Positions 3,136 to 20,284 of a stretch of DNA of 24,000 nucleotides are shown piece by piece (the stretch's first letter is position 1; each line of letters opens with the position of its first letter). A program made the position numbers and the translations under genes. Origin of the DNA: Candidatus Harpocratesius repetitus (GTDB taxonomy: Archaea > Asgardarchaeota > Lokiarchaeia > Sigyniarchaeales > Promethearchaeaceae); the NCBI GenBank assembly GCA_021498095.1, contig JAIZWK010000001.1, positions 716,448-740,447 on the forward strand, given 5' to 3'. Under the pieces are notes generated by a model. That model was not told where the DNA came from. It searched no databases and was given only the letters and a program-made list of their open reading frames with translations.

Positions 3136-4284
3136 ATGCTGAAAAAACCAACTATTTTTGATTACACGCAAATACAAAATTGTATTATCTATAAATTAAA
3201 AAAGAAAAATCTAATTTATAGAGGATTTATGATCGAAGATTTCGATTATTTCAATGAAATTGACCAATATTTAAAAGAACATTTAGTAACACAAAAAATA
3301 AGCTATATCTTCTACTTTTTTCCTAGAAATAATAAACTAATACTATGGATTTTTTCACGAAATTATAATATCCATGAGTTTAATTTAATTATCAATGAAT
3401 TTCTTTCATATTTTTCAATTTTGTTAAAAAATTTATCTGAAGATATCTTAATAAAATCATTTTTTGTTAATTCTTTTTTACAACATTCAGAAATTGAGAT
3501 TATAGATGATTTTGATGATGAAAAATTTGAACTTGTAGATCAAAATTCAAATTCATTATTTATCTTCAAAATTTCATTCAAATTAAAAACACATCAAACA
3601 AAATACTGTAATATATTGAAAAAATTCCTAGAATATACAAATACTGCTAAAATTCAAACTCTAATTCAGATTAAATCAAAAAATGACTATGTCCAGAAAG
3701 TAGCAATAATTGTTTTTTTTAAAACTCTTACTGAAAAAAAAACTCTTGAAGGATATATTAAATCACTTAAAATATCTGATTTTCTAGCATTGCATAAAAT
3801 AAGATTAAAAGACTTTAAAAGAATGATCTCAAAAAAAATAATAAACAATTATAATCAAATACGCTTAGATGAAGTTTTTCCATATTTTACTAGAAAAATA
3901 GACGAAAAAATCTTTCAACCAAATTATTTACTTAATTCTTTAACTAAAGTTAAAGAAATACTAAAACATTCCTCAAAAAAATTAAAAATTTCGGAATATT
4001 TAATTATAAATAATAAGAATCAATATATTTTTATTTTAAATAACAAAACTCTCTTAAAATTAACTCAATCTCTACTTAAATATTACCCTAATTGTGTAGA
4101 TTTTTTAATCATTTCTTCTAATTCTGAATTAATTCAAATCTTAAAAAATAGAACTTCAATTGAAAAATTATCAAAATTATCTCTATTTTTTTATGAAAAT
4201 CTTCAAAGTTTAATGCAAACAATTTTACACGATACCAATCAAGATCAGAAATCTAGTGAGAGTCCATTATTGATAATCAATTAA
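3136..4284 (+). CDS. Hypothetical protein (382 aa), no recognisable domain
   Basis: Long uninterrupted ORF with ATG at 3136, divergent from the TFB gene. The composition is strongly K/I/N/L-biased and I see no motif I can name. Confidence 0.55.
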   Translation: MLKKPTIFDYTQIQNCIIYKLKKKNLIYRGFMIEDFDYFNEIDQYLKEHLVTQKISYIFYFFPRNNKLILWIFSRNYNIHEFNLIINEFLSYFSILLKNLSEDILIKSFFVNSFLQHSEIEIIDDFDDEKFELVDQNSNSLFIFKISFKLKTHQTKYCNILKKFLEYTNTAKIQTLIQIKSKNDYVQKVAIIVFFKTLTEKKTLEGYIKSLKISDFLALHKIRLKDFKRMISKKIINNYNQIRLDEVFPYFTRKIDEKIFQPNYLLNSLTKVKEILKHSSKKLKISEYLIINNKNQYIFILNNKTLLKLTQSLLKYYPNCVDFLIISSNSELIQILKNRTSIEKLSKLSLFFYENLQSLMQTILHDTNQDQKSSESPLLIIN

Positions 4285-4623: not shown

Positions 4624-4983
4624 TCATTCATATATTAATTGAAAAATTATTAAAAAAAAATTTACAATAAATAAAGAAGCAATACCAATAAATGAGATAT
4701 TTATTATTTGGTAAATTTCATTCATTACTTTCAATAATAATATGTTAATATGGGCTTCAATTACCATATTGTTAATGTATTTACTCATTTCTAAAATAAT
4801 AATTCGTTTAATTTCTGAGATTTTAAGAACTAAATATTCAATTAAAATAAAAAAAATACTTTTAATTGCAATTTTTGGAATAATTTGAATAAAAAAAAAA
4901 AGAAAAAAAACAAAAATGCAAAGAAATGTGTAAATTGAAAATAATTTTAGTAAAAAATCGAATGTATTGCTGAATAGAATCAT
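4624..4983 (-). CDS. Small predicted multi-pass membrane protein (119 aa), last gene of the GTPase operon
   Basis: ATG lies 7 nt after the stop of the upstream GTPase gene. Hydrophobic segments are 'FLLKLFSIYTFLCIFVFFLFFFIQII' and 'ISFIGIASLFIVNFFLIIFQLI', with an amphipathic middle. Caveat: poly-A/T DNA readily yields F/I/L-rich shadow ORFs. Confidence 0.4.
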   Translation of the reverse strand: MILFSNTFDFLLKLFSIYTFLCIFVFFLFFFIQIIPKIAIKSIFFILIEYLVLKISEIKRIIILEMSKYINNMVIEAHINILLLKVMNEIYQIINISFIGIASLFIVNFFLIIFQLIYE

Positions 4984-4990
4984 TTTATTT

Positions 4991-5575
4991 CTACTTCACA
5001 ATAATTGATGGGAAAATCATTTCTAAGATATATTTAAATGCCTCTATGATCCCTCTGTTATCTATTGCAATAGTTGGGATTAATTGGACTTTTGATAAGG
5101 AATTTAATTGAAAATGTTGATTAATTTCATCTAAACTAATTAAATTATCTAAATCTTGCTTGTTTAAACAAATTACAATTGGTAAATCCGAGATTTTTTC
5201 CTGTAAATAGAAATTTAATTCATTCCAAGATGAGAGGTTATCATTGAAATATTTTCTTTGTGAATCGACAACAAACATTATTCCATCTATCCCATAAAGA
5301 GTTGCTGGTCTGGTAGACGCATAGAAATCTTGTCCTGTCGCAGTTAAAAGAGAGATTTTTACTATCCATTCCCCTCCTTTTAATTGTAGTACTCCAAAAT
5401 CAAAAAAAAGGGTTCTTCCTGTTGTTGTTTCAATCGAAGTTAGTAAGTCTTCGCGATTAAACGATCTAAATAAATTTTTCAAGCTAGTTGTCTTTCCAGA
5501 CATAGCACAGCCATAATAAACTATCTTAATCTGAATTTCTTTTTTTTTATAATTAATTAACATTTTTATCCCCAT
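4991..5575 (-). CDS. MglA-type Ras-superfamily small GTPase
   Basis: 'MLINYKKKEIQIKIVYYGCAMSGKTTSL' matches the MglA N-terminus/P-loop pattern (INY...KIVYYGPGLCGKTT). Switch I is 'TTGRTLFFDF'. G3 is 'LTATGQ', with Thr in place of the Ras Asp as in MglA 'TVPGQ'. G4 is 'NKQD'. The more likely start is the ATG at 5563 (MLINY...), preceded by the SD-like GGGGAT. The ORF-track start at 5575 would overlap the upstream stop. Confidence 0.85.
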   Translation of the reverse strand: MGIKMLINYKKKEIQIKIVYYGCAMSGKTTSLKNLFRSFNREDLLTSIETTTGRTLFFDFGVLQLKGGEWIVKISLLTATGQDFYASTRPATLYGIDGIMFVVDSQRKYFNDNLSSWNELNFYLQEKISDLPIVICLNKQDLDNLISLDEINQHFQLNSLSKVQLIPTIAIDNRGIIEAFKYILEMIFPSIIVK

Positions 5576-6465
5576 AAACTTTCAAATGTATCAGATAACT
5601 TTGATGTTTTTTCTAAATTTAATAATGAAAAGAAATTTGCACCCCATTCATTCAAAATAAACTGTAAAATCCTTTCTATAGGTGCATGTTTATAATCAAT
5701 AGTAGAAAATAAAACCCTAGGAGAAAGATTTGTTTTTATATTTAATGCATCTAATATTTGAATTCGATTTAAAATATTAATTGATCTTTTACAAGCATTA
5801 AAGAAGTTTAAAATTTCTTTTTTTATTATGTTTTCTTTAATCTCTTTCTCTTCAATTTCAAAATTCATAATTGATTTTTTTTCTTCTACTGGAATTTTTC
5901 GATAATTTGTTCGTTTTGAAATAATTCGCTTCATTTTTTCAATTTCAATTTCTGTTCTATTTATAGCATTTTCATAAATCCACTTTTCAAGAGAAAGATC
6001 AAAACTTGGAAATGACTTACCGACTATTTCTGTTTTTAAGCTTTTTTCATCAATTTCAAGCTTTAAAAAATAATCAACAAGTGAGTACATTTTATTATAA
6101 ATTTTAATATAGTTTGCATAGGAGTTTTTGTCAATAATAACTCCAAATATCCAAGATTGGAAAGTGGTGATTGTCTCAATTGCTTTTAAAGAGGCGTTAG
6201 GAAAACATAAGAATACGTTTCGTTCACTATTTAAATCATTTTCTTCATATTCTCGAATCTCCAAATAATCACTTAGTTCAATAAAATCAGATAGAAAAAT
6301 CAAATTATTCCTGAAAGGTATTAGTGATATTAGTTCATTGATTAAATTTTCTATAATCTCTTCTTGATCTGATATAATTACAATAGGAATTCTATCTAAT
6401 AAGCATTTTAATAATAATGATACATCTTCAATTTCTGATTGACTAAAACGATTTATCAAATCCAT
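5566..6465 (-). CDS. Uncharacterised 299-aa protein with a core-DENN-like motif pattern in the N-terminal half (hypothesis)
   Basis: ATG at 6465 is preceded by GGTGA (minus strand, 6476-6472), complementary to the 16S 3' end. It is wedged between the Roadblock and GTPase genes. 'LLLKCLLDRIPIVIISDQEEIIENLINELISLIPFRNNLIF...SWIFGVI' resembles the cDENN pattern LL-x-R-hhhh-S/AD...L-hYPF-W-x-h-YIP...PFhIG. The C-terminal half is helical. Confidence 0.75.
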   Translation of the reverse strand: MDLINRFSQSEIEDVSLLLKCLLDRIPIVIISDQEEIIENLINELISLIPFRNNLIFLSDFIELSDYLEIREYEENDLNSERNVFLCFPNASLKAIETITTFQSWIFGVIIDKNSYANYIKIYNKMYSLVDYFLKLEIDEKSLKTEIVGKSFPSFDLSLEKWIYENAINRTEIEIEKMKRIISKRTNYRKIPVEEKKSIMNFEIEEKEIKENIIKKEILNFFNACKRSINILNRIQILDALNIKTNLSPRVLFSTIDYKHAPIERILQFILNEWGANFFSLLNLEKTSKLSDTFESLWG

Positions 6466-6476
6466 TGTATTTCACC

Positions 6477-7490
6477 TTATAATAATAATTGGTTGAAAAT
6501 AGATTCAATTTTTATTGGTGGAACTAATTTTGAGCTATTTTCTGATTCTTTCAAGATTTTTTCTAATTTATTACAATATTTTGGAATTACTAATCTTAAA
6601 AGCCCTAATTTTTGTCTACCTTTTGCGATTCTGGCAGAAAAAATTGCTGATCGAATTTGATTTATAAATTGAAACTCATCAATACATTCTAATAAAATTG
6701 ATGTTATATGCATTCTCTTCAATTGCCAAGCACATTTATCTGCTGTATAGAATAAAGATTGACTGAGAGTTGCTTCTTTTTCCAAATTATCACTGGTTCT
6801 ATTCATTTTATTTTCTAAACTTGAGAGAATGAAGCCACCTTCAAAAGTAATGAATGTATTTATCAAATCAAATGTATTCCTACTAAAATCATCTAGTAGA
6901 TTATCTAGTTGATCATATGAAGATTGAGCAAAACTTAATGAAAACATAGGAATTCGCTCCTTCTTTTCAACCTCGTCTTTATTTTCTATTGAATTAAGAA
7001 ATCTTTGCATTTCTTCAGGAGAATAATGTCTCATTGGTGGTTTAAAAGAATTCTTTGATAAAATAAGACATTTTTTAATTTCAGCTAAACTAGAACGAAT
7101 TTTTAAAAATATTCCTCCTAAATTTACATTTGATTTCGTTGTTATAGCAACGTAAAATTCTTCATTTAGATTTTGTAAATTTTGAGCTTGAATGATCTTA
7201 TTAATTGTGGTGTTTCCATAATTTTTTAAAGGTGTGATTAATATTTTTGCCATTTTTCCTTCAATTAATATATATTTTAACTTATTTTGATGTAAACTTA
7301 ATCCACAATTATAGATTGCTGAGGTCGCAGCACAGATACTAAATAATTCTTCTTTAGAAAGCCAAATGCCACTATGTTGAATTGGATTTCCGTCTCGTTG
7401 TGTTAAAACAACATTATCTACTCCTTTTGTGGCTTTAATAAGATCCAAATAAGATTTTATTTTCATTGTTAGTGAAATTTTCTTCACCAT
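6477..7490 (-). CDS. Tandem Roadblock/LC7-domain protein (MglB-like), 337 aa
   Basis: The N-terminal domain 'YLDLIKATKGVDNVVLTQRDGNPIQHSG...ELFSICAATSAIYNCG...ILIEGKMAKILITPL' fits the Roadblock/LC7/MglB pattern. A second similar unit lies near the C-terminus ('FDLINTFITFEGGFILSS...SQSLFYTADKCAWQL...SILLECIDEFQFINQI'). It is the first gene of the operon that contains the MglA-like GTPase. Confidence 0.8.
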   Translation of the reverse strand: MVKKISLTMKIKSYLDLIKATKGVDNVVLTQRDGNPIQHSGIWLSKEELFSICAATSAIYNCGLSLHQNKLKYILIEGKMAKILITPLKNYGNTTINKIIQAQNLQNLNEEFYVAITTKSNVNLGGIFLKIRSSLAEIKKCLILSKNSFKPPMRHYSPEEMQRFLNSIENKDEVEKKERIPMFSLSFAQSSYDQLDNLLDDFSRNTFDLINTFITFEGGFILSSLENKMNRTSDNLEKEATLSQSLFYTADKCAWQLKRMHITSILLECIDEFQFINQIRSAIFSARIAKGRQKLGLLRLVIPKYCNKLEKILKESENSSKLVPPIKIESIFNQLLL

Positions 7491-8129
7491 TTTTTATTTA
7501 TAGTAATTGCAATCAATTTTAAAAAATCCTAAAATTAATTAAAGAATTAATGATAAAAAAAAGGAAAAATAAAGTTAAAATTCAAAATAAAATGAAAAAT
7601 ATCTATATGATAATGCAAATTTTAGAAATTACTTGATATTTATGCTATTTTTTTTGAATTTCTTCATTACAAAAAAAATACAAAGGAATTTACATATTCC
7701 TTTATAATTTTAAACAATAATTTTGAAATCATAAAATCTATTCAATTTTGTATATTAATTAAAATTAAACTTATGAATCTAAAAATTTATATCTTGATTC
7801 TTTTATTTTGAAAAGAAAGAAACGTTAAAATTTATTAAGGAAGAATCCCACAATTGATTTCTAGAGCCACTTTCGATATGTTTAAATTAACATTTGCATT
7901 GTATATTTTGTAGTTGGAGACAACTCAATCCCATATCAATCGGCGTGAATATGGATCAACGACACATGTCACGGAGATGAAGTATTCCATTCCTTGATGA
8001 TGGGAAAAATATGAAGTCCTCTAAAAAGGACTGAAGTTGTTATGCACAGATGGTCGGTAAGTAAACGACCCCCAAAAAGGAATTTAAGTTGAATAGAAGC
8101 GAGATCAAATGGAAGGATAATGAAAACCA

Positions 8130-9627
<1,498 letters not shown>

Positions 9628-9718
9628 ACAACGCACCGAAGGTATCATCCTTCGGGCATTTCTTTTTATATAATTGATTTTAAATTTATTGTTTGACTAT
9701 TACAACTAAGCTGCTTTT

Positions 9719-9791
9719 GGGCCTATAGCTCAGTTGGTAGAGCGCCTGACTTGCACTCAGGAGGTCGGGGATTCAAATTCCCCTAGGTCCA
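9719..9791 (+). tRNA. tRNA-Ala (anticodon UGC), in the 16S downstream spacer position
   Basis: Acceptor GGGCCTA/TAGGTCC with the G3:U70 alanine identity pair. D arm GCTC-AGTTGGTA-GAGC, anticodon stem CCTGA/TCAGG with loop CTTGCAC, T arm GGGGA-TTCAAAT-TCCCC, discriminator A. A T5 run follows. Confidence 0.95.
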
Positions 9792-10010
9792 TTTTTATTC
9801 ATGAAGAATGAGATTAATTTGTACCAAAATTTTTAATATTTTTAACATATAAGAAAAATTAATGTTCTTAATACCTTTAAAGTTAGCAGATTGGGATATG
9901 GATAAATTTCGATTGCGATTACAATTATTAAGTGTGTTGGTAATTGTTGTAATACTTATTTATGTTGTTTTTTCTTCGAAAGATAATGAGAGTTAATTTT
10001 TTTTAATTAA

Positions 10011-11225
10011 TTATTTTGGTTTAACTGCAGATACTATTTTGATAATATCATTATTCTTTAATTCATAATGTTCACCTAAACGCATTTTTGATCTTGCATC
10101 TAAACCGTAAATGAAATTCTTTGCTAGATCTGAATGAATTTTTGTTTCAACAAATTTCTTCAATTTTGTATTTTTTAAGACTAAATGTGCATCAGGTAAT
10201 ACATTTCCATCTTTATCAGAAAATGAATTCGTATCATAAACAGGATATACAACAATTTGATTTAATACATTGAAAACAGAATAATTTATTATATCTTGAA
10301 TACCTGTACTATTGTATTTTTTGAGTATTTTTTCTTCAATATTTTTAAGTGCGTTTAGTTCAGATTTTTGCAATTTTTCATTTTGTATTATTTTAAACTT
10401 AGTATCACCTGGTAAATATTCAATAATTCGATCTTCTGCATATTTTCTTAACCAATACTCTGCTAAAGCACTACATGGGATAATTTTCCCTTTATATTTT
10501 CTTTTTAATTCTGTTAACATTTGTTCTCCATTATGCTTATCTATTTTATTTGCTGCAATTATTATTGGTTTTGAAATTTCTCTTAATTTTCTTGCAAAAT
10601 CGAAAATATTGTCATCATTCCATTTTGTTAATTTCTCAAAATCTAGATTAATAGAATTCATTGCATTAAGAATATGTTCTTTTTGAATACCAATTCCAGC
10701 TAACCTTTCATGCAATAAATCTACAAATGATAGTTTTTCTTGTTCAATCTTTCTAACAAATTTTCCCCAATCTTTTTTAATAATAAGATCCTTAAACCAG
10801 AAATTAATTTCATCCTCCAAAAATTTTATATCATCTAGCGGATCTCTTGCCCCTTCATCAATATCTTGACCTTCAGCATCTAGACTTCCAGAAATATCTA
10901 TAACGTGAATTAATACATCTGCTCGTGCAAGATCTGATAAAAATTGATTTCCCATTCCCTTTCCTAAATGCGCATCAGGAACTAATCCTGCAACATCCAG
11001 AAGTTTCACAGGAATAAACCTATTTTGGTTTATGCAAATAGAGTTTTTTGGATTATCTTTAATATTTAATTCTCGACATGCACAAATTGTTCTAACAAAA
11101 GATTTTCCTAAATTTGGTTTGATAGTTGTAAATGGATAATTTGCTGTTTTATATTGAGTCAAACAAGCTGCATTAAGGAATGTACTTTTCCCAGAAGAAG
11201 GTTTCCCAACAATTCCAATAAGCAT
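10011..11225 (-). CDS. Obg-like GTPase of the Ygr210 type (TRAFAC GTPase with C-terminal TGS-like domain)
   Basis: 404 aa. G1 'GIVGKPSSGKSTF', G2 'NYPFTTIKPNLG', G3 'LLDVAGLV', G4 'AANKID', and a C-terminal 'GEHYELKNNDIIKIV' TGS-like beta-grasp. The long insertion between G3 and G4 is typical of the archaeal/yeast Ygr210 subgroup. Confidence 0.85.
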   Translation of the reverse strand: MLIGIVGKPSSGKSTFLNAACLTQYKTANYPFTTIKPNLGKSFVRTICACRELNIKDNPKNSICINQNRFIPVKLLDVAGLVPDAHLGKGMGNQFLSDLARADVLIHVIDISGSLDAEGQDIDEGARDPLDDIKFLEDEINFWFKDLIIKKDWGKFVRKIEQEKLSFVDLLHERLAGIGIQKEHILNAMNSINLDFEKLTKWNDDNIFDFARKLREISKPIIIAANKIDKHNGEQMLTELKRKYKGKIIPCSALAEYWLRKYAEDRIIEYLPGDTKFKIIQNEKLQKSELNALKNIEEKILKKYNSTGIQDIINYSVFNVLNQIVVYPVYDTNSFSDKDGNVLPDAHLVLKNTKLKKFVETKIHSDLAKNFIYGLDARSKMRLGEHYELKNNDIIKIVSAVKPK

Positions 11226-17907: not shown

Positions 17908-18627
17908 TCAATTGATATTTGAAATTCTTTTCCGGATAGGTTTTTTTGCTACTGTTTTATTCACTTTTCCCTTTTCTTCAGGATAATAGCGCGTTTCAAA
18001 ATCATCCCAAGATTTTGAAAAAACATGATTAGTAAATGCTTCCTTCAATCCTGAAATCTGTTTTAATCGGAGAACTTCATCTTTATCCATTCCTAATTTT
18101 TGGCAAATTTTTTCATCACTCCAACCTTGTCGAACTAAATCTAGTACTATATCAGACATGGAACGAATATGATGCGTTCCTCTCGCTCTATTATGCCGAA
18201 TGGTAGATCCCATGCGTTCATCTAGTGGTTTATCAATAATAGTTAAGGGAAGATGAGCATTTATTCGCTCTTTAATATCTTTGAATTCGCGTCCAACTCG
18301 ATTTCGGTGAAATCCGTCAACAATTTCATAATTTCCGTTTTCTAAGCGATATGCGACAATTGGTTGTGTATAACCATCGGATTTAATTGATTCATAAAGA
18401 AGTTTCATTTCTGGTTGTGCGACTCTGTTTGGATTGTATGTATTCGCCTGTATTTTCTCTATAGGAATCCATAACACTGTATCAACAGGTTCGCTAAATG
18501 GGGAAAACTGCGAGATTTGAGTACGTAATTCATTCAAATATGACACTTGTTCTTCAAATGACATGCTTTCTAGATCTCTACGAATTATTTTTATGATCTC
18601 TTTTATATTATTCATTATATTACTCAC
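17908..18627 (-). CDS. ParB/sulfiredoxin-fold (ParB N-terminal domain) protein, IbrB-like
   Basis: 239 aa. 'IPIEKIQANTYNPNR...LLYESIKSDGYTQPIVAY...NYEIVDGFHRNRVG' is the ParB-N/Srx core with the DGxHR motif. It is followed by 'STIRHNRARG' and an HTH-like 'SDEKICQKLGMDKDEVLRLKQ'. It lies 64 nt downstream of, and co-directional with, the PP-loop gene. Confidence 0.8.
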   Translation of the reverse strand: MSNIMNNIKEIIKIIRRDLESMSFEEQVSYLNELRTQISQFSPFSEPVDTVLWIPIEKIQANTYNPNRVAQPEMKLLYESIKSDGYTQPIVAYRLENGNYEIVDGFHRNRVGREFKDIKERINAHLPLTIIDKPLDERMGSTIRHNRARGTHHIRSMSDIVLDLVRQGWSDEKICQKLGMDKDEVLRLKQISGLKEAFTNHVFSKSWDDFETRYYPEEKGKVNKTVAKKPIRKRISNIN

Positions 18628-18691
18628 TTTTGTATTTTCTTTTTATATCTTTATCTTTCATATTCTTTTTTGTGTTTATTCCCCTTTTTCA

Positions 18692-20284
18692 TCAATCTTC
18701 CTTTTTTTTTCCACATTCAATTGCCTCGATTCTCTTTCGTAATTTCCGTTGAATATGACCGTCTCCTGTTAATCGATGTTTTTCACGTAGTTTAATTAAA
18801 AGTTCGTCTCCTGCTTTGTCATATCCAAAATCCAGATAAGTCATATAAAAATCATTTTTTTCAATCGCTCGAGCTACTGTCTGCCAAGAAACTGATTTTC
18901 CTTTTCCTGCATCAGGCATTTTTCCATACGGAATTCCTAGATTCTTTTCACACCAAAGCATATAGTATTTTATTTTCTCGTAATAACGTCGCATTATCAA
19001 TGGTTCATAAATTCCTATAGATTCAAGTAAAAAAATCGTGTACTGTTGCCAGGTTAAATGATCGGGTTTCATTGAGGTGAGGTTTCCCAATAGAGATGTA
19101 CGACAGTATATCGCACCAAAATTAACTCCCTCCACCCGCTGCAGTAACCGCTCCCATGTTTCTGGTTCAATTACTCGATATTGATCCAATCCTGCTTTTT
19201 GTGCTGAACCAAATGGTTGACATATTCGCTGGAGCGAAAGAGGAACTCCATTTTTATACATATCTTCATAAACATGATTATAATCTAAATTAAATTTTGC
19301 CACACAACCCCAAATATCTTCTACTTTCCAATCATAAATCGGATATGCATTATAAATATTTGGTAATATTTCTGTAGTCCAAAATAATCCCTTATAACGT
19401 GGTTTATCTCGGTTTGCTACAGCTAAAAAGCGACGGAGAGATTCATCAGTGCGAATTCCTACAACTATTGCTGTTCGTTTGGCTTTTTTCGTTTTATGAA
19501 GCCATTGTGAGTATTGAAAAATAAAACGGTCAAAATCATTTATGTTTTCAGCAAAAGGGAAAGGATTATTATCCCAAGTAATAGCACCTTCAGGAATATC
19601 TCTTACCCAATGTTCTCTTGCAGATTCATCCCAAGTAATAAACTCAGGATTTAAAGCTGAGGTAGCATTGTCTTCACAAAACGGTAAACAAATCCAGTAA
19701 AAATTTTCACAATTTGGTTTCACTTCTTCACGTAATGATTCCACAAAGCGAGCAGTCTCCATATACATGGCTTCAAAATCAATGAACATTACAGAAAACT
19801 TTTTGCCCATTTCTGCAGCTACCATATTAGCAAGTTGAAGTGTTACCCCCGAATCTTTTCCTCCGCTAATGGCAAAGCTTATATTATCAAATTCAGTAAA
19901 AAGTAATCGAAGTCGGGCAAAAGTAGCATCTAATACATTTGTTTCATTATATATTTTTTTGGATTTTCTCACGTATTTTATTTCAGGCGAAGTTATCTGA
20001 GATATTTTTTGTTTGGGTATTTTTCCTTTTTTTGAAGTCTTTTCTTTTTTCTTTTTTGATAAATCAGAATTAGCTGAGAGACTTCTCTTTGTTTCCATTT
20101 TACTTTTTATTACAAATTCTGATTGTTTTTGTTTTTTTTTTCTTTTTAGAGTGATTGAATGAGAAGGTTTCGGAATGACTTTCACTGTGTCTTGAAATCC
20201 TCTTTCCTTTTTTAGCTGATCAAGAAGTTTAGATTGATTTTTAACTACATTCATAAATTCACAGTCACCCCGCCTCTTACCCAT
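18692..20284 (-). CDS. PAPS-reductase-family PP-loop ATP pyrophosphatase with C-terminal extension, IbrA-like; Lys-rich N-terminal extension
   Basis: 530 aa. The PP-loop 'ISFAISGGKDSGVTL' (aa ~136-149) is followed by 'FIDFEAMY' and 'VVGIRTDESLRR', typical of the PAPS reductase/DndC/CysD fold. A ~170-aa C-terminal region lies beyond the fold. The first ~108 aa are K/S-rich ('KRKKKQKQ', 'SKKKKEKTSKKGK'). Confidence 0.8.
   Translation of the reverse strand: MGKRRGDCEFMNVVKNQSKLLDQLKKERGFQDTVKVIPKPSHSITLKRKKKQKQSEFVIKSKMETKRSLSANSDLSKKKKEKTSKKGKIPKQKISQITSPEIKYVRKSKKIYNETNVLDATFARLRLLFTEFDNISFAISGGKDSGVTLQLANMVAAEMGKKFSVMFIDFEAMYMETARFVESLREEVKPNCENFYWICLPFCEDNATSALNPEFITWDESAREHWVRDIPEGAITWDNNPFPFAENINDFDRFIFQYSQWLHKTKKAKRTAIVVGIRTDESLRRFLAVANRDKPRYKGLFWTTEILPNIYNAYPIYDWKVEDIWGCVAKFNLDYNHVYEDMYKNGVPLSLQRICQPFGSAQKAGLDQYRVIEPETWERLLQRVEGVNFGAIYCRTSLLGNLTSMKPDHLTWQQYTIFLLESIGIYEPLIMRRYYEKIKYYMLWCEKNLGIPYGKMPDAGKGKSVSWQTVARAIEKNDFYMTYLDFGYDKAGDELLIKLREKHRLTGDGHIQRKLRKRIEAIECGKKKED

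Follow-up and report, generated by a model that had tools for sequence, protein, structure and literature searches.

The minus strand of the DNA analysed here (the window: 24,000 nucleotides (nt) of contig JAIZWK010000001.1 of Candidatus Harpocratesius repetitus, an Asgard archaeon of the Lokiarchaeia/Promethearchaeia, positions 716,448 to 740,447) carries four genes packed end to end, which encode a predicted tandem-Roadblock protein of 337 amino acids (aa), a 299-aa protein termed DENN-like below, a small GTPase of the MglA type and a 119-aa hydrophobic protein (Table 1). We consider it reasonably probable that the first three are a core operon of Lokiarchaeia, which combines a GTPase switch with two regulators, and that the fourth is a single clade-specific addition. 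The locus belongs to a previously predicted, still uncharacterised kind of Asgard operon.

Related loci were collected with a Roadblock-family scan, one genome being taken per species, and the best 80 of 119 relatives were analysed. Nearly all of them are metagenome-assembled genomes (MAGs) of Promethearchaeota/Lokiarchaeia; the cultured Promethearchaeum syntrophicum MK-D1, which carries an orthologous locus at about 153.5–156.1 kb of CP042905.2, is included. The genes for the Roadblock protein, the DENN-like protein and the GTPase follow one another in this order on one strand in 79 of the 80 loci, with spacers of 0–19 nt (mostly 12–13) between the first two and of 2–9 nt between the DENN-like gene and the GTPase gene. 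As both order and tight spacing of these three genes are kept in 79 loci, the arrangement is not due to chance. The initial annotation of this DNA had named co-conservation of all four genes in relatives as a check on its claim; it is seen for the first three, the fourth being found in the closest clade only.

The junctions were taken from the sequence itself, and the coordinates of the four open reading frames (ORFs), the gaps and the motifs given in the initial annotation are all present as described. Upon the TAA stop codon of the Roadblock gene follow GGTGAAATACA (11 nt) and the ATG of the DENN-like gene; the GGTGA of this spacer is complementary to the 3′ end of the 16S ribosomal RNA (rRNA) encoded in the same window, GGATCACCTCCT. 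The next junction reads TGG GGA TAA AA ATG. If the GTPase starts at its second Met (5563, 190 aa), the gap is of 2 nt; with the start at 5575 taken in the ORF list (4991–5575, 194 aa), the two genes overlap by 10 nt. The 190-aa form fits the N-terminus of MglA (MLINYKKKEIQIKIVYYG versus FINYSSREINCKIVYYG) as well as the 190-aa gene calls in relatives. The TAG of the GTPase gene is separated from the ATG of the last ORF by AAATAAA (7 nt). Outside the rRNA gene, the GC content of the window is about 25%. Gene packing of this sort is as expected for translational coupling, in agreement with the initial annotation, and from the sequence the three core genes are probably transcribed together, with coupled translation.

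Table 1. Coordinates of the operon and its parts in the window.
Feature	Position	Strand	Basis
Tandem-Roadblock protein, 337 aa, first operon gene; possible alternative start at second Met, 7466	6477–7490	-	Pfam, AlphaFold2, Foldseek
N-terminal Roadblock domain, residues 7–144, with invariant VLTQRDGNP in the β1–β2 loop	7059–7472	-	Pfam, AlphaFold2
C-terminal Roadblock-like domain (predicted), residues 189–317	6540–6926	-	AlphaFold2 secondary-structure order, pLDDT 85–94
11-nt spacer; its Shine-Dalgarno (SD)-like GGTGA precedes the start codon of the 299-aa gene by 6 nt	6466–6476	-	read from sequence
Putative DENN/folliculin-C-like protein, 299 aa: α/β domain 1–150, helical region 158–283, disordered invariant tail DTFESLWG	5566–6465	-	AlphaFold2, Foldseek, Pfam, hhalign
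Group-1 MglA-type small GTPase, 190 aa (194 aa if start at 5575)	4991–5563	-	phmmer against PDB, motifs, Pfam
Clade-specific small hydrophobic ORF, 119 aa, 2–3 predicted transmembrane segments	4624–4983	-	GRAVY, Kyte-Doolittle
Divergent intergenic region common to operon and 16S rRNA gene, presumed operon promoter region	7491–8129	.	

The GTPase and the Roadblock protein

When the GTPase was compared by phmmer with all PDB sequences, the best matches were four solved MglA sequences, with expectation values (E) of 3e-27 to 1e-25 and 93–99 bits; the hits that came next, Arf, Arl and Rab proteins of Asgard archaea and eukaryotes, did not exceed 36 bits. The alignment with MglA runs almost without gaps from the N-terminal INY...KIVYYG segment through G1–G2. 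The translation includes the motifs KIVYYGCAMSGKTT and LLTATGQ, and its P-loop (GCAMSGKTT) and G4 (NKQD) comply with the patterns GxxxxGK[ST] and NKxD of Ras-superfamily GTPases; switch I has GRT, and G3 is TATGQ. TTGRTLFFDF aligns with MglA TDRTLFFDF, GRT standing against DRT, which places an intrinsic arginine finger next to the G2 Thr; LLTATGQ aligns with MglA LYTVPGQ, with Thr as the first G3 residue and the catalytic Gln kept. An Arg next to the G2 Thr and a Thr as first residue of G3 are the features by which group-1 MglA is defined (Wuichet and Søgaard-Andersen, 2015). Since the protein scores 98 bits with MglA versus at most 36 with the other GTPases and has these defining features, there is a strong case, built on scores and motifs and not on a tree, for assigning it to group-1 MglA. 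The MglA-like identity proposed in the initial annotation is thereby upheld.

In Pfam, the GTPase matches Arf (E 1.8e-12) and also Ras, and Pfam alone would lead to an Arf-like assignment. As to a Gtr1/RagA-type protein with a C-terminal Roadblock domain, the sequence is a 190-aa single domain, and the Pfam model Gtr1_RagA gives E 0.064 and 13 bits versus a cut-off of 22. The initial annotation had related the layout to the origin of Rag/Ragulator- or Rab-type regulation; the GTPase itself is neither Rag-like nor Rab-like but a single-domain group-1 MglA, and any parallel with Rag/Ragulator is therefore one of analogous parts, not of membership. Among the small GTPases of Asgard archaea, the MglA1 type is an acknowledged class, and 'MglA bacterial-like' GTPases have been noted in MK-D1 from AlphaFold2 models (Tran et al., 2024).

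For the 337-aa protein, 361 homologues of about 333 aa were found, one of them in P. syntrophicum, and VLTQRDGNP is invariant among them. The Pfam family Robl_LC7 (PF03259) matches residues 14–91 (E 8.7e-7; 29 bits versus a gathering score of 23). An AlphaFold2 model computed from 30 sequences (predicted local distance difference test score (pLDDT) 78, predicted template modelling score (pTM) 0.77) consists of two α-β-β-α-β-β-β-α units joined by a linker of low confidence. Upon submitting this model to Foldseek, MglB of T. thermophilus and M. xanthus, LAMTOR2/3 and solved Asgard Roadblock proteins were retrieved, at target-normalised template modelling (TM) scores of 0.85–0.89, a root-mean-square deviation (rmsd) of about 2 Å and E of 4e-6 to 1e-4; the match to MglB (target-normalised TM 0.88, rmsd 1.9 Å) is reported in an output that does not say which domain matched. 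The multi-longin subunits of Mon1/Ccz1 and BLOC-3 gave only full-length alignments of low TM. Family match, predicted topology and Foldseek hits together make a strong case that the N-terminal half is a Roadblock domain, as the initial annotation had claimed for this protein.

The second domain can be proposed with moderate confidence, from the AlphaFold2 model only, and the pTM suggests a defined relative arrangement of the two predicted units. When the N-terminal and C-terminal halves were compared by hhalign, the alignment was in register, with a non-significant E of 0.15. Regarding the claim that Roadblock is duplicated within one polypeptide, the first domain is established by Pfam and the second is predicted by the model, whereas the sequence-only comparison of the halves does not bear it out.

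Two further observations concern the Roadblock gene. The invariant RDGNP (residues 32–36; window 7383–7397) lies in the loop just before strand β2 of the first Roadblock domain; a DG turn is common in ordinary Roadblock domains. A 'GP motif' in the loop preceding β2 has been described as specific to GAP-type longins (FLCN, NPRL2, SMCR8, C9orf72; longin paper, 2025), GAP standing for GTPase-activating protein, and the likeness of RDGNP to that motif is of position only. In loci L004 (about 5000–5333) and L005 (about 340–692), the N-terminal Roadblock domain is complete and its reading frame unbroken, yet no ATG, GTG or TTG lies ahead of it, and the gene callers began at an internal Met (216 and 215 aa, respectively). 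At the corresponding site MK-D1 has an ATG with a strong AGGTGAT. Either these two genes use a non-canonical start codon or the assemblies contain an error here.

The DENN-like protein, the hydrophobic protein and alternative readings

The 299-aa protein is 100% identical to K9W44_02870, a hypothetical protein of a 'Candidatus Lokiarchaeota archaeon', and 90% identical to a protein of 'Candidatus Harpocratesius sp.'. A word-indexed search gave 21 close homologues, and an exhaustive profile search gave 94 cluster representatives, typically of about 300 aa; Sigynarchaeota members belong to the family. The AlphaFold2 model (pLDDT 85, pTM 0.83) has an α/β domain (1–150), long helices (158–240), a small helical end and a tail. 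In Foldseek, the highest TM scores of this model (0.39–0.41 over about 290 columns, Foldseek probability about 0.9, E 0.06–0.1) are with the guanine nucleotide exchange factor (GEF) domains of DENND1A/B bound to Rab35. The Pfam profile Folliculin_C appears in 3 of 46 relatives, below threshold, so that neither DENN nor Folliculin_C is formally matched; in the best of them (P0028), residues 5–62 align with profile positions 4–62 (E 4.8e-4; 20.2 bits versus a gathering score of 27). We also rebuilt an alignment of the metazoan FLCN C-terminus, with the human sequence verified against PDB 6ULG and 3V42. In hhalign, residues 2–50 of the 299-aa family align with positions 8–56 of FLCN-C (49 co-linear; P 6.9e-4, score 31.8), about 10 standard deviations above 60 column-shuffled control alignments (12.0 ± 2.0, maximum 18.6). 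This segment is co-linear with the same N-terminal stretch that the Folliculin_C matches cover. A further pairing, of SWIxG...FLKLEID with PYLIGIH...VVILNVD in DENND1A/B, is co-linear with the DENN domain at a score within noise, and is only suggestive.

Because of the fold likeness to DENND1, the sub-threshold Folliculin_C relatives and the profile–profile match, we regard the 299-aa protein as most likely DENN/folliculin-C-like, with weak to moderate confidence. An N-terminal longin (uDENN) is not found in this chain, the α/β domain beginning at residue 1, and the Roadblock-superfamily protein is encoded separately, upstream. The initial annotation had left the protein uncharacterised and named it as a candidate GEF; a role as GTPase regulator is plausible, and the label of a simple unknown can be replaced. 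Its C-terminus is also of note: almost all DENN-like proteins of the 79 loci terminate in S[L/M/F]WG, the TGG-GGN codons giving rise to a TGGGG tract 7–14 nt upstream of the GTPase start (window 5566–5580). This end may be under a double constraint, as C-terminal peptide motif and as SD-like site.

The following mechanism would account for the core operon. The switch would be the GTPase, which itself supplies both the arginine finger (GRT of switch I) and the catalytic Gln (of TATGQ). The two Roadblock domains of one chain would most likely form an intramolecular pseudo-dimer, binding one GTPase as the MglB homodimer binds MglA, and this pseudo-dimer would act as GAP by repositioning the Arg and Gln of the GTPase itself. 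The DENN-like protein would most likely join the Roadblock platform, perhaps by its invariant disordered tail (...SLWG), and serve there as exchange factor or co-regulator; the two proteins would then be comparable to a longin-DENN module (FLCN, DENND) split over two polypeptides. The small membrane protein, added in the Promethearchaeum/Harpocratesius clade, may localise the module, outside its conserved design. We infer a physical complex, the GAP and GEF roles and a single transcript, the mode of GAP action by analogy with MglA-MglB.

A different weighting of the parts would make all four genes one membrane-tethered switch, in which the 119-aa protein anchors the GAP, GEF and GTPase of one transcript. 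The ORF begins 7 nt past the GTPase stop and is strongly hydrophobic (grand average of hydropathicity (GRAVY) 1.45; Kyte-Doolittle hydrophobic segments at about residues 7–58 and 89–119). By arithmetic from base composition, the chance of an open frame of 119 codons at about 23% GC is in the order of 1e-5, and a spurious AT-rich frame is ruled out, since five relatives from the closest clade keep it open, at a comparable length and with a comparable distribution of hydrophobic residues (118–131 aa; L008–L012; the MK-D1 locus, L007, also has it, unannotated). The ORF is neither absent nor frameshifted in close relatives, either of which would, according to the initial annotation, have refuted its claim. 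However, no ORF of at least 60 aa follows the GTPase in the remaining loci, about 70 of the 80, most of which have instead a convergent second GTPase gene some 500 nt downstream. The protein also evolves far faster than its neighbours, being 18–31% identical to its clade counterparts (P36, K41 and F109 are invariant) versus 50–75% for the neighbouring proteins; it lacks an SD-like site and has no homologue in the profile libraries searched (Pfam, NCBIfam). As the ORF is absent from about 70 of 80 operons, a membrane anchor is not part of the core design. What stands of the anchored layout put forward in the initial annotation is a real, adjacent gene, and a four-component tethered switch is unlikely. 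We conclude that the ORF is a real, lineage-specific, fast-evolving gene of the Promethearchaeum/Harpocratesius clade and not a conserved anchor.

Several results weigh against a three-gene core with two regulators, and they mostly concern the DENN-like protein. The 299-aa protein of the window has no match in Pfam, NCBIfam or the PDB sequences, and with its family profiles the PDB sequences gave noise only (e.g., ferritin, CHCHD1); NCBIfam was uninformative for all four operon proteins. Foldseek retrieved nothing from the PDB at E 1e-3 for its model. When a metazoan FLCN_C hidden Markov model was run against the 3424 ORFs of the 80 loci, the DENN-like ORFs were not ranked, and the hhalign score of the family with DENND1A/B (16) is within shuffle noise. 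One locus, L080 (1653–3348), has the GTPase gene directly after the Roadblock gene, without a DENN-like gene. To this is added that the second Roadblock domain comes from the structural model. Finally, the pairing of GTPases with regulators can usually not be read from the MK-D1 genome (Tran et al., 2024); that study gives no experimental link for the operon, which would be an exception to the statement.

Part of these results would fit a plain two-component module of the MglA/MglB type, the 299-aa protein being a degenerate P-loop/AAA-like scaffold or an unrelated passenger. The lowest Foldseek E for its model belong to P-loop ATPases of the secretion and F1 types, chains of ORC and of clamp loaders ranking lower, the DENN evidence is sub-threshold throughout, and L080 dispenses with the gene. 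Yet in the other 79 loci the gene lies between both partners, 2–9 nt from the GTPase start, and one N-terminal segment of FLCN_C is indicated both by Pfam and, independently, by hhalign. The ATPase matches have TM scores of 0.19–0.32, versus 0.39–0.41 for DENND1, and the family lacks a Walker A motif, which rules out an active P-loop NTPase. We judge the two-component module to be about as improbable as the tethered switch. Less probable again is that the operon is a direct archaeal forerunner of Rag-Ragulator-FLCN nutrient signalling, by membership and not by analogy: the parts list (a Roadblock platform, a FLCN-C-like protein and a small GTPase) and the head-to-head position with the 16S rRNA gene would suit it, but the GTPase is a single-domain group-1 MglA without C-terminal Roadblock, and Liu et al. 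(2020) themselves place the GTPase of the operon outside Rag, a family with many members elsewhere in Asgard genomes. The three-gene core with its clade-specific addition is thus the reading that we retain.

Genomic surroundings

An archaeal 16S rRNA gene is located at 8130–9625, and the operon is transcribed divergently from it. The head-to-head position, with the 5′ end of the 16S rRNA gene 350–630 nt from the Roadblock gene start, recurs in 13 of the 15 relatives with enough flanking sequence (L009, L010, L017, L018, L025, L034, L037, L040, L047, L055, L058, L064 and L072). Many other loci break off at a contig end a few hundred nt upstream, as expected beside an rRNA gene. The shared position may stem from co-regulation or from inertia. 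In the window, tRNA-Ala(TGC) comes after the 16S rRNA gene (region 8130–9792), and the next gene, at 10011, already encodes a protein; the 14 kb of the window that follow contain no 23S rRNA gene, and the rRNA genes appear to be unlinked. One could imagine the operon as a growth-state switch: controlled by a Roadblock pseudo-dimer and a detached DENN/FLCN-like subunit, an MglA-type GTPase would share its regulation with ribosome synthesis or feed back on it, as a prokaryotic functional precursor of FLCN-Ragulator-Rag logic on a different GTPase; this we hold to be a long shot, the least probable of the readings considered here.

Synteny downstream of the operon is less stable. A gene for a 382-aa protein without family match (3136–4284, plus strand) is convergent to the operon, and genes of 376–387 aa occupy the same position in L001–L005. 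Most Lokiarchaeal loci have about 500 nt downstream a convergent gene for a second MglA-like GTPase (about 231 aa; GSGKTT, YTVAGQ), which matches the GTPase of the window at E of about 1e-22; it was seen in L016, L019, L022, L024, L026, L029–L033, L035–L042 and most others, and is absent from the clade of the window. An extra GTPase gene on the same strand lies upstream of the Roadblock gene in L045 and L071, and several MAGs have two copies of the operon. A few records of operon contigs bear the names of other phyla in their titles, among them MAGs titled Patescibacteria and Nanopelagicaceae (L045, JANBVM010000002.1; L055; L070, DATKTW01...); L055 carries an archaeal 16S rRNA gene as well, and the contigs under these two titles are probably mis-binned. 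Elsewhere in the window (17908–20284, minus strand), the gene for a ParB_N-domain protein (239 aa) adjoins that for a PAPS_reduct and DUF3440 protein (530 aa), a pair which we take to resemble the IbrB/IbrA type.

Comparison with known systems

The layout, which the initial annotation set apart from the two-gene bacterial module, is not new and had already been predicted: Liu et al. (bioRxiv 10.1101/2020.10.19.343400, 2020; Nature, 2021) described an operon 'conserved in most Asgard archaea', in which the gene for a DENN-domain protein accompanies those for a protein of the Roadblock superfamily ('LAMTOR1-like') and for a small GTPase that they call 'Rab-like' and separate from Rag. They likened it to FLCN/Ragulator and proposed a GEF-like role. 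The same three adjacent components, conserved across genomes, are found here, mostly in Lokiarchaeia; the GTPase called 'Rab-like' there is group-1 MglA-like in our analysis. The predicted tandem Roadblock, the clade-specific membrane ORF and the 16S adjacency are not mentioned in the text of that paper. Composition and conservation match, and the locus of the window is probably of the kind described there. In the literature searched, we found no experimental work on the operon.

With the MglA/MglB polarity module of Myxococcus xanthus and Thermus thermophilus, the locus shares a GTPase that has the Arg finger, the Thr-type G3 and the INY...KIVYYG segment, and a Roadblock-fold partner encoded beside it. 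MglB is a single Roadblock domain that binds MglA 2:1 as a homodimer, whereas here two diverged domains are predicted in one chain. Unlike in MglA/MglB, a DENN-like gene lies between the partners, and neither gliding nor a type IV pilus polarity system is known from the host archaeon.

Roadblock pairs are GTPase platforms also in Ragulator (LAMTOR2/3, LAMTOR4/5) and in the C-terminal dimers of Rag, and the Foldseek matches of the 337-aa model to LAMTOR2/3 have a target-normalised TM of about 0.8. The Ragulator and Rag pairs are, however, separate chains, and the operon encodes neither a LAMTOR1-type lipidated wrap protein nor a Rag-type GTPase. Longin-DENN modules, such as the Rab35 GEF DENND1 and the GAP complexes FLCN-FNIP2 and C9orf72-SMCR8, are comparable in that the operon, too, would pair an α/β plus helical, putatively two-lobed protein resembling cDENN+dDENN with a platform of the Roadblock/longin superfamily and a small GTPase. 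They differ in that the DENN-like chain of the operon has no longin (uDENN), that its platform has Roadblock and not longin topology and that its client is a GTPase of the MglA type instead of a Rab, Rag or Arf; the sequence similarity is marginal. A survey of longin-GAP complexes (2025) treats Asgard longins of the FLCN/SMCR8 type, not the Roadblock-DENN-MglA operon.

Eukaryotes have no closer known relatives than the Asgard archaea, and the gain by small GTPases of Roadblock/longin and DENN regulators is central to the origins of membrane trafficking and nutrient signalling. Seldom does gene order link a particular Asgard GTPase to particular candidate regulators as it does in this operon and, as the operon is present in the cultured P. 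syntrophicum, the predicted GAP and GEF roles are directly testable. What our analysis adds is the group-1 MglA identity of the GTPase, the predicted tandem-Roadblock architecture and the finding that the head-to-head position with the 16S rRNA gene is conserved. The locus does not represent a new kind of system; it sharpens the earlier prediction, in that the GTPase is MglA group 1 and not Rab-like, the Roadblock pair is predicted to be intramolecular and the core does not include the membrane protein.

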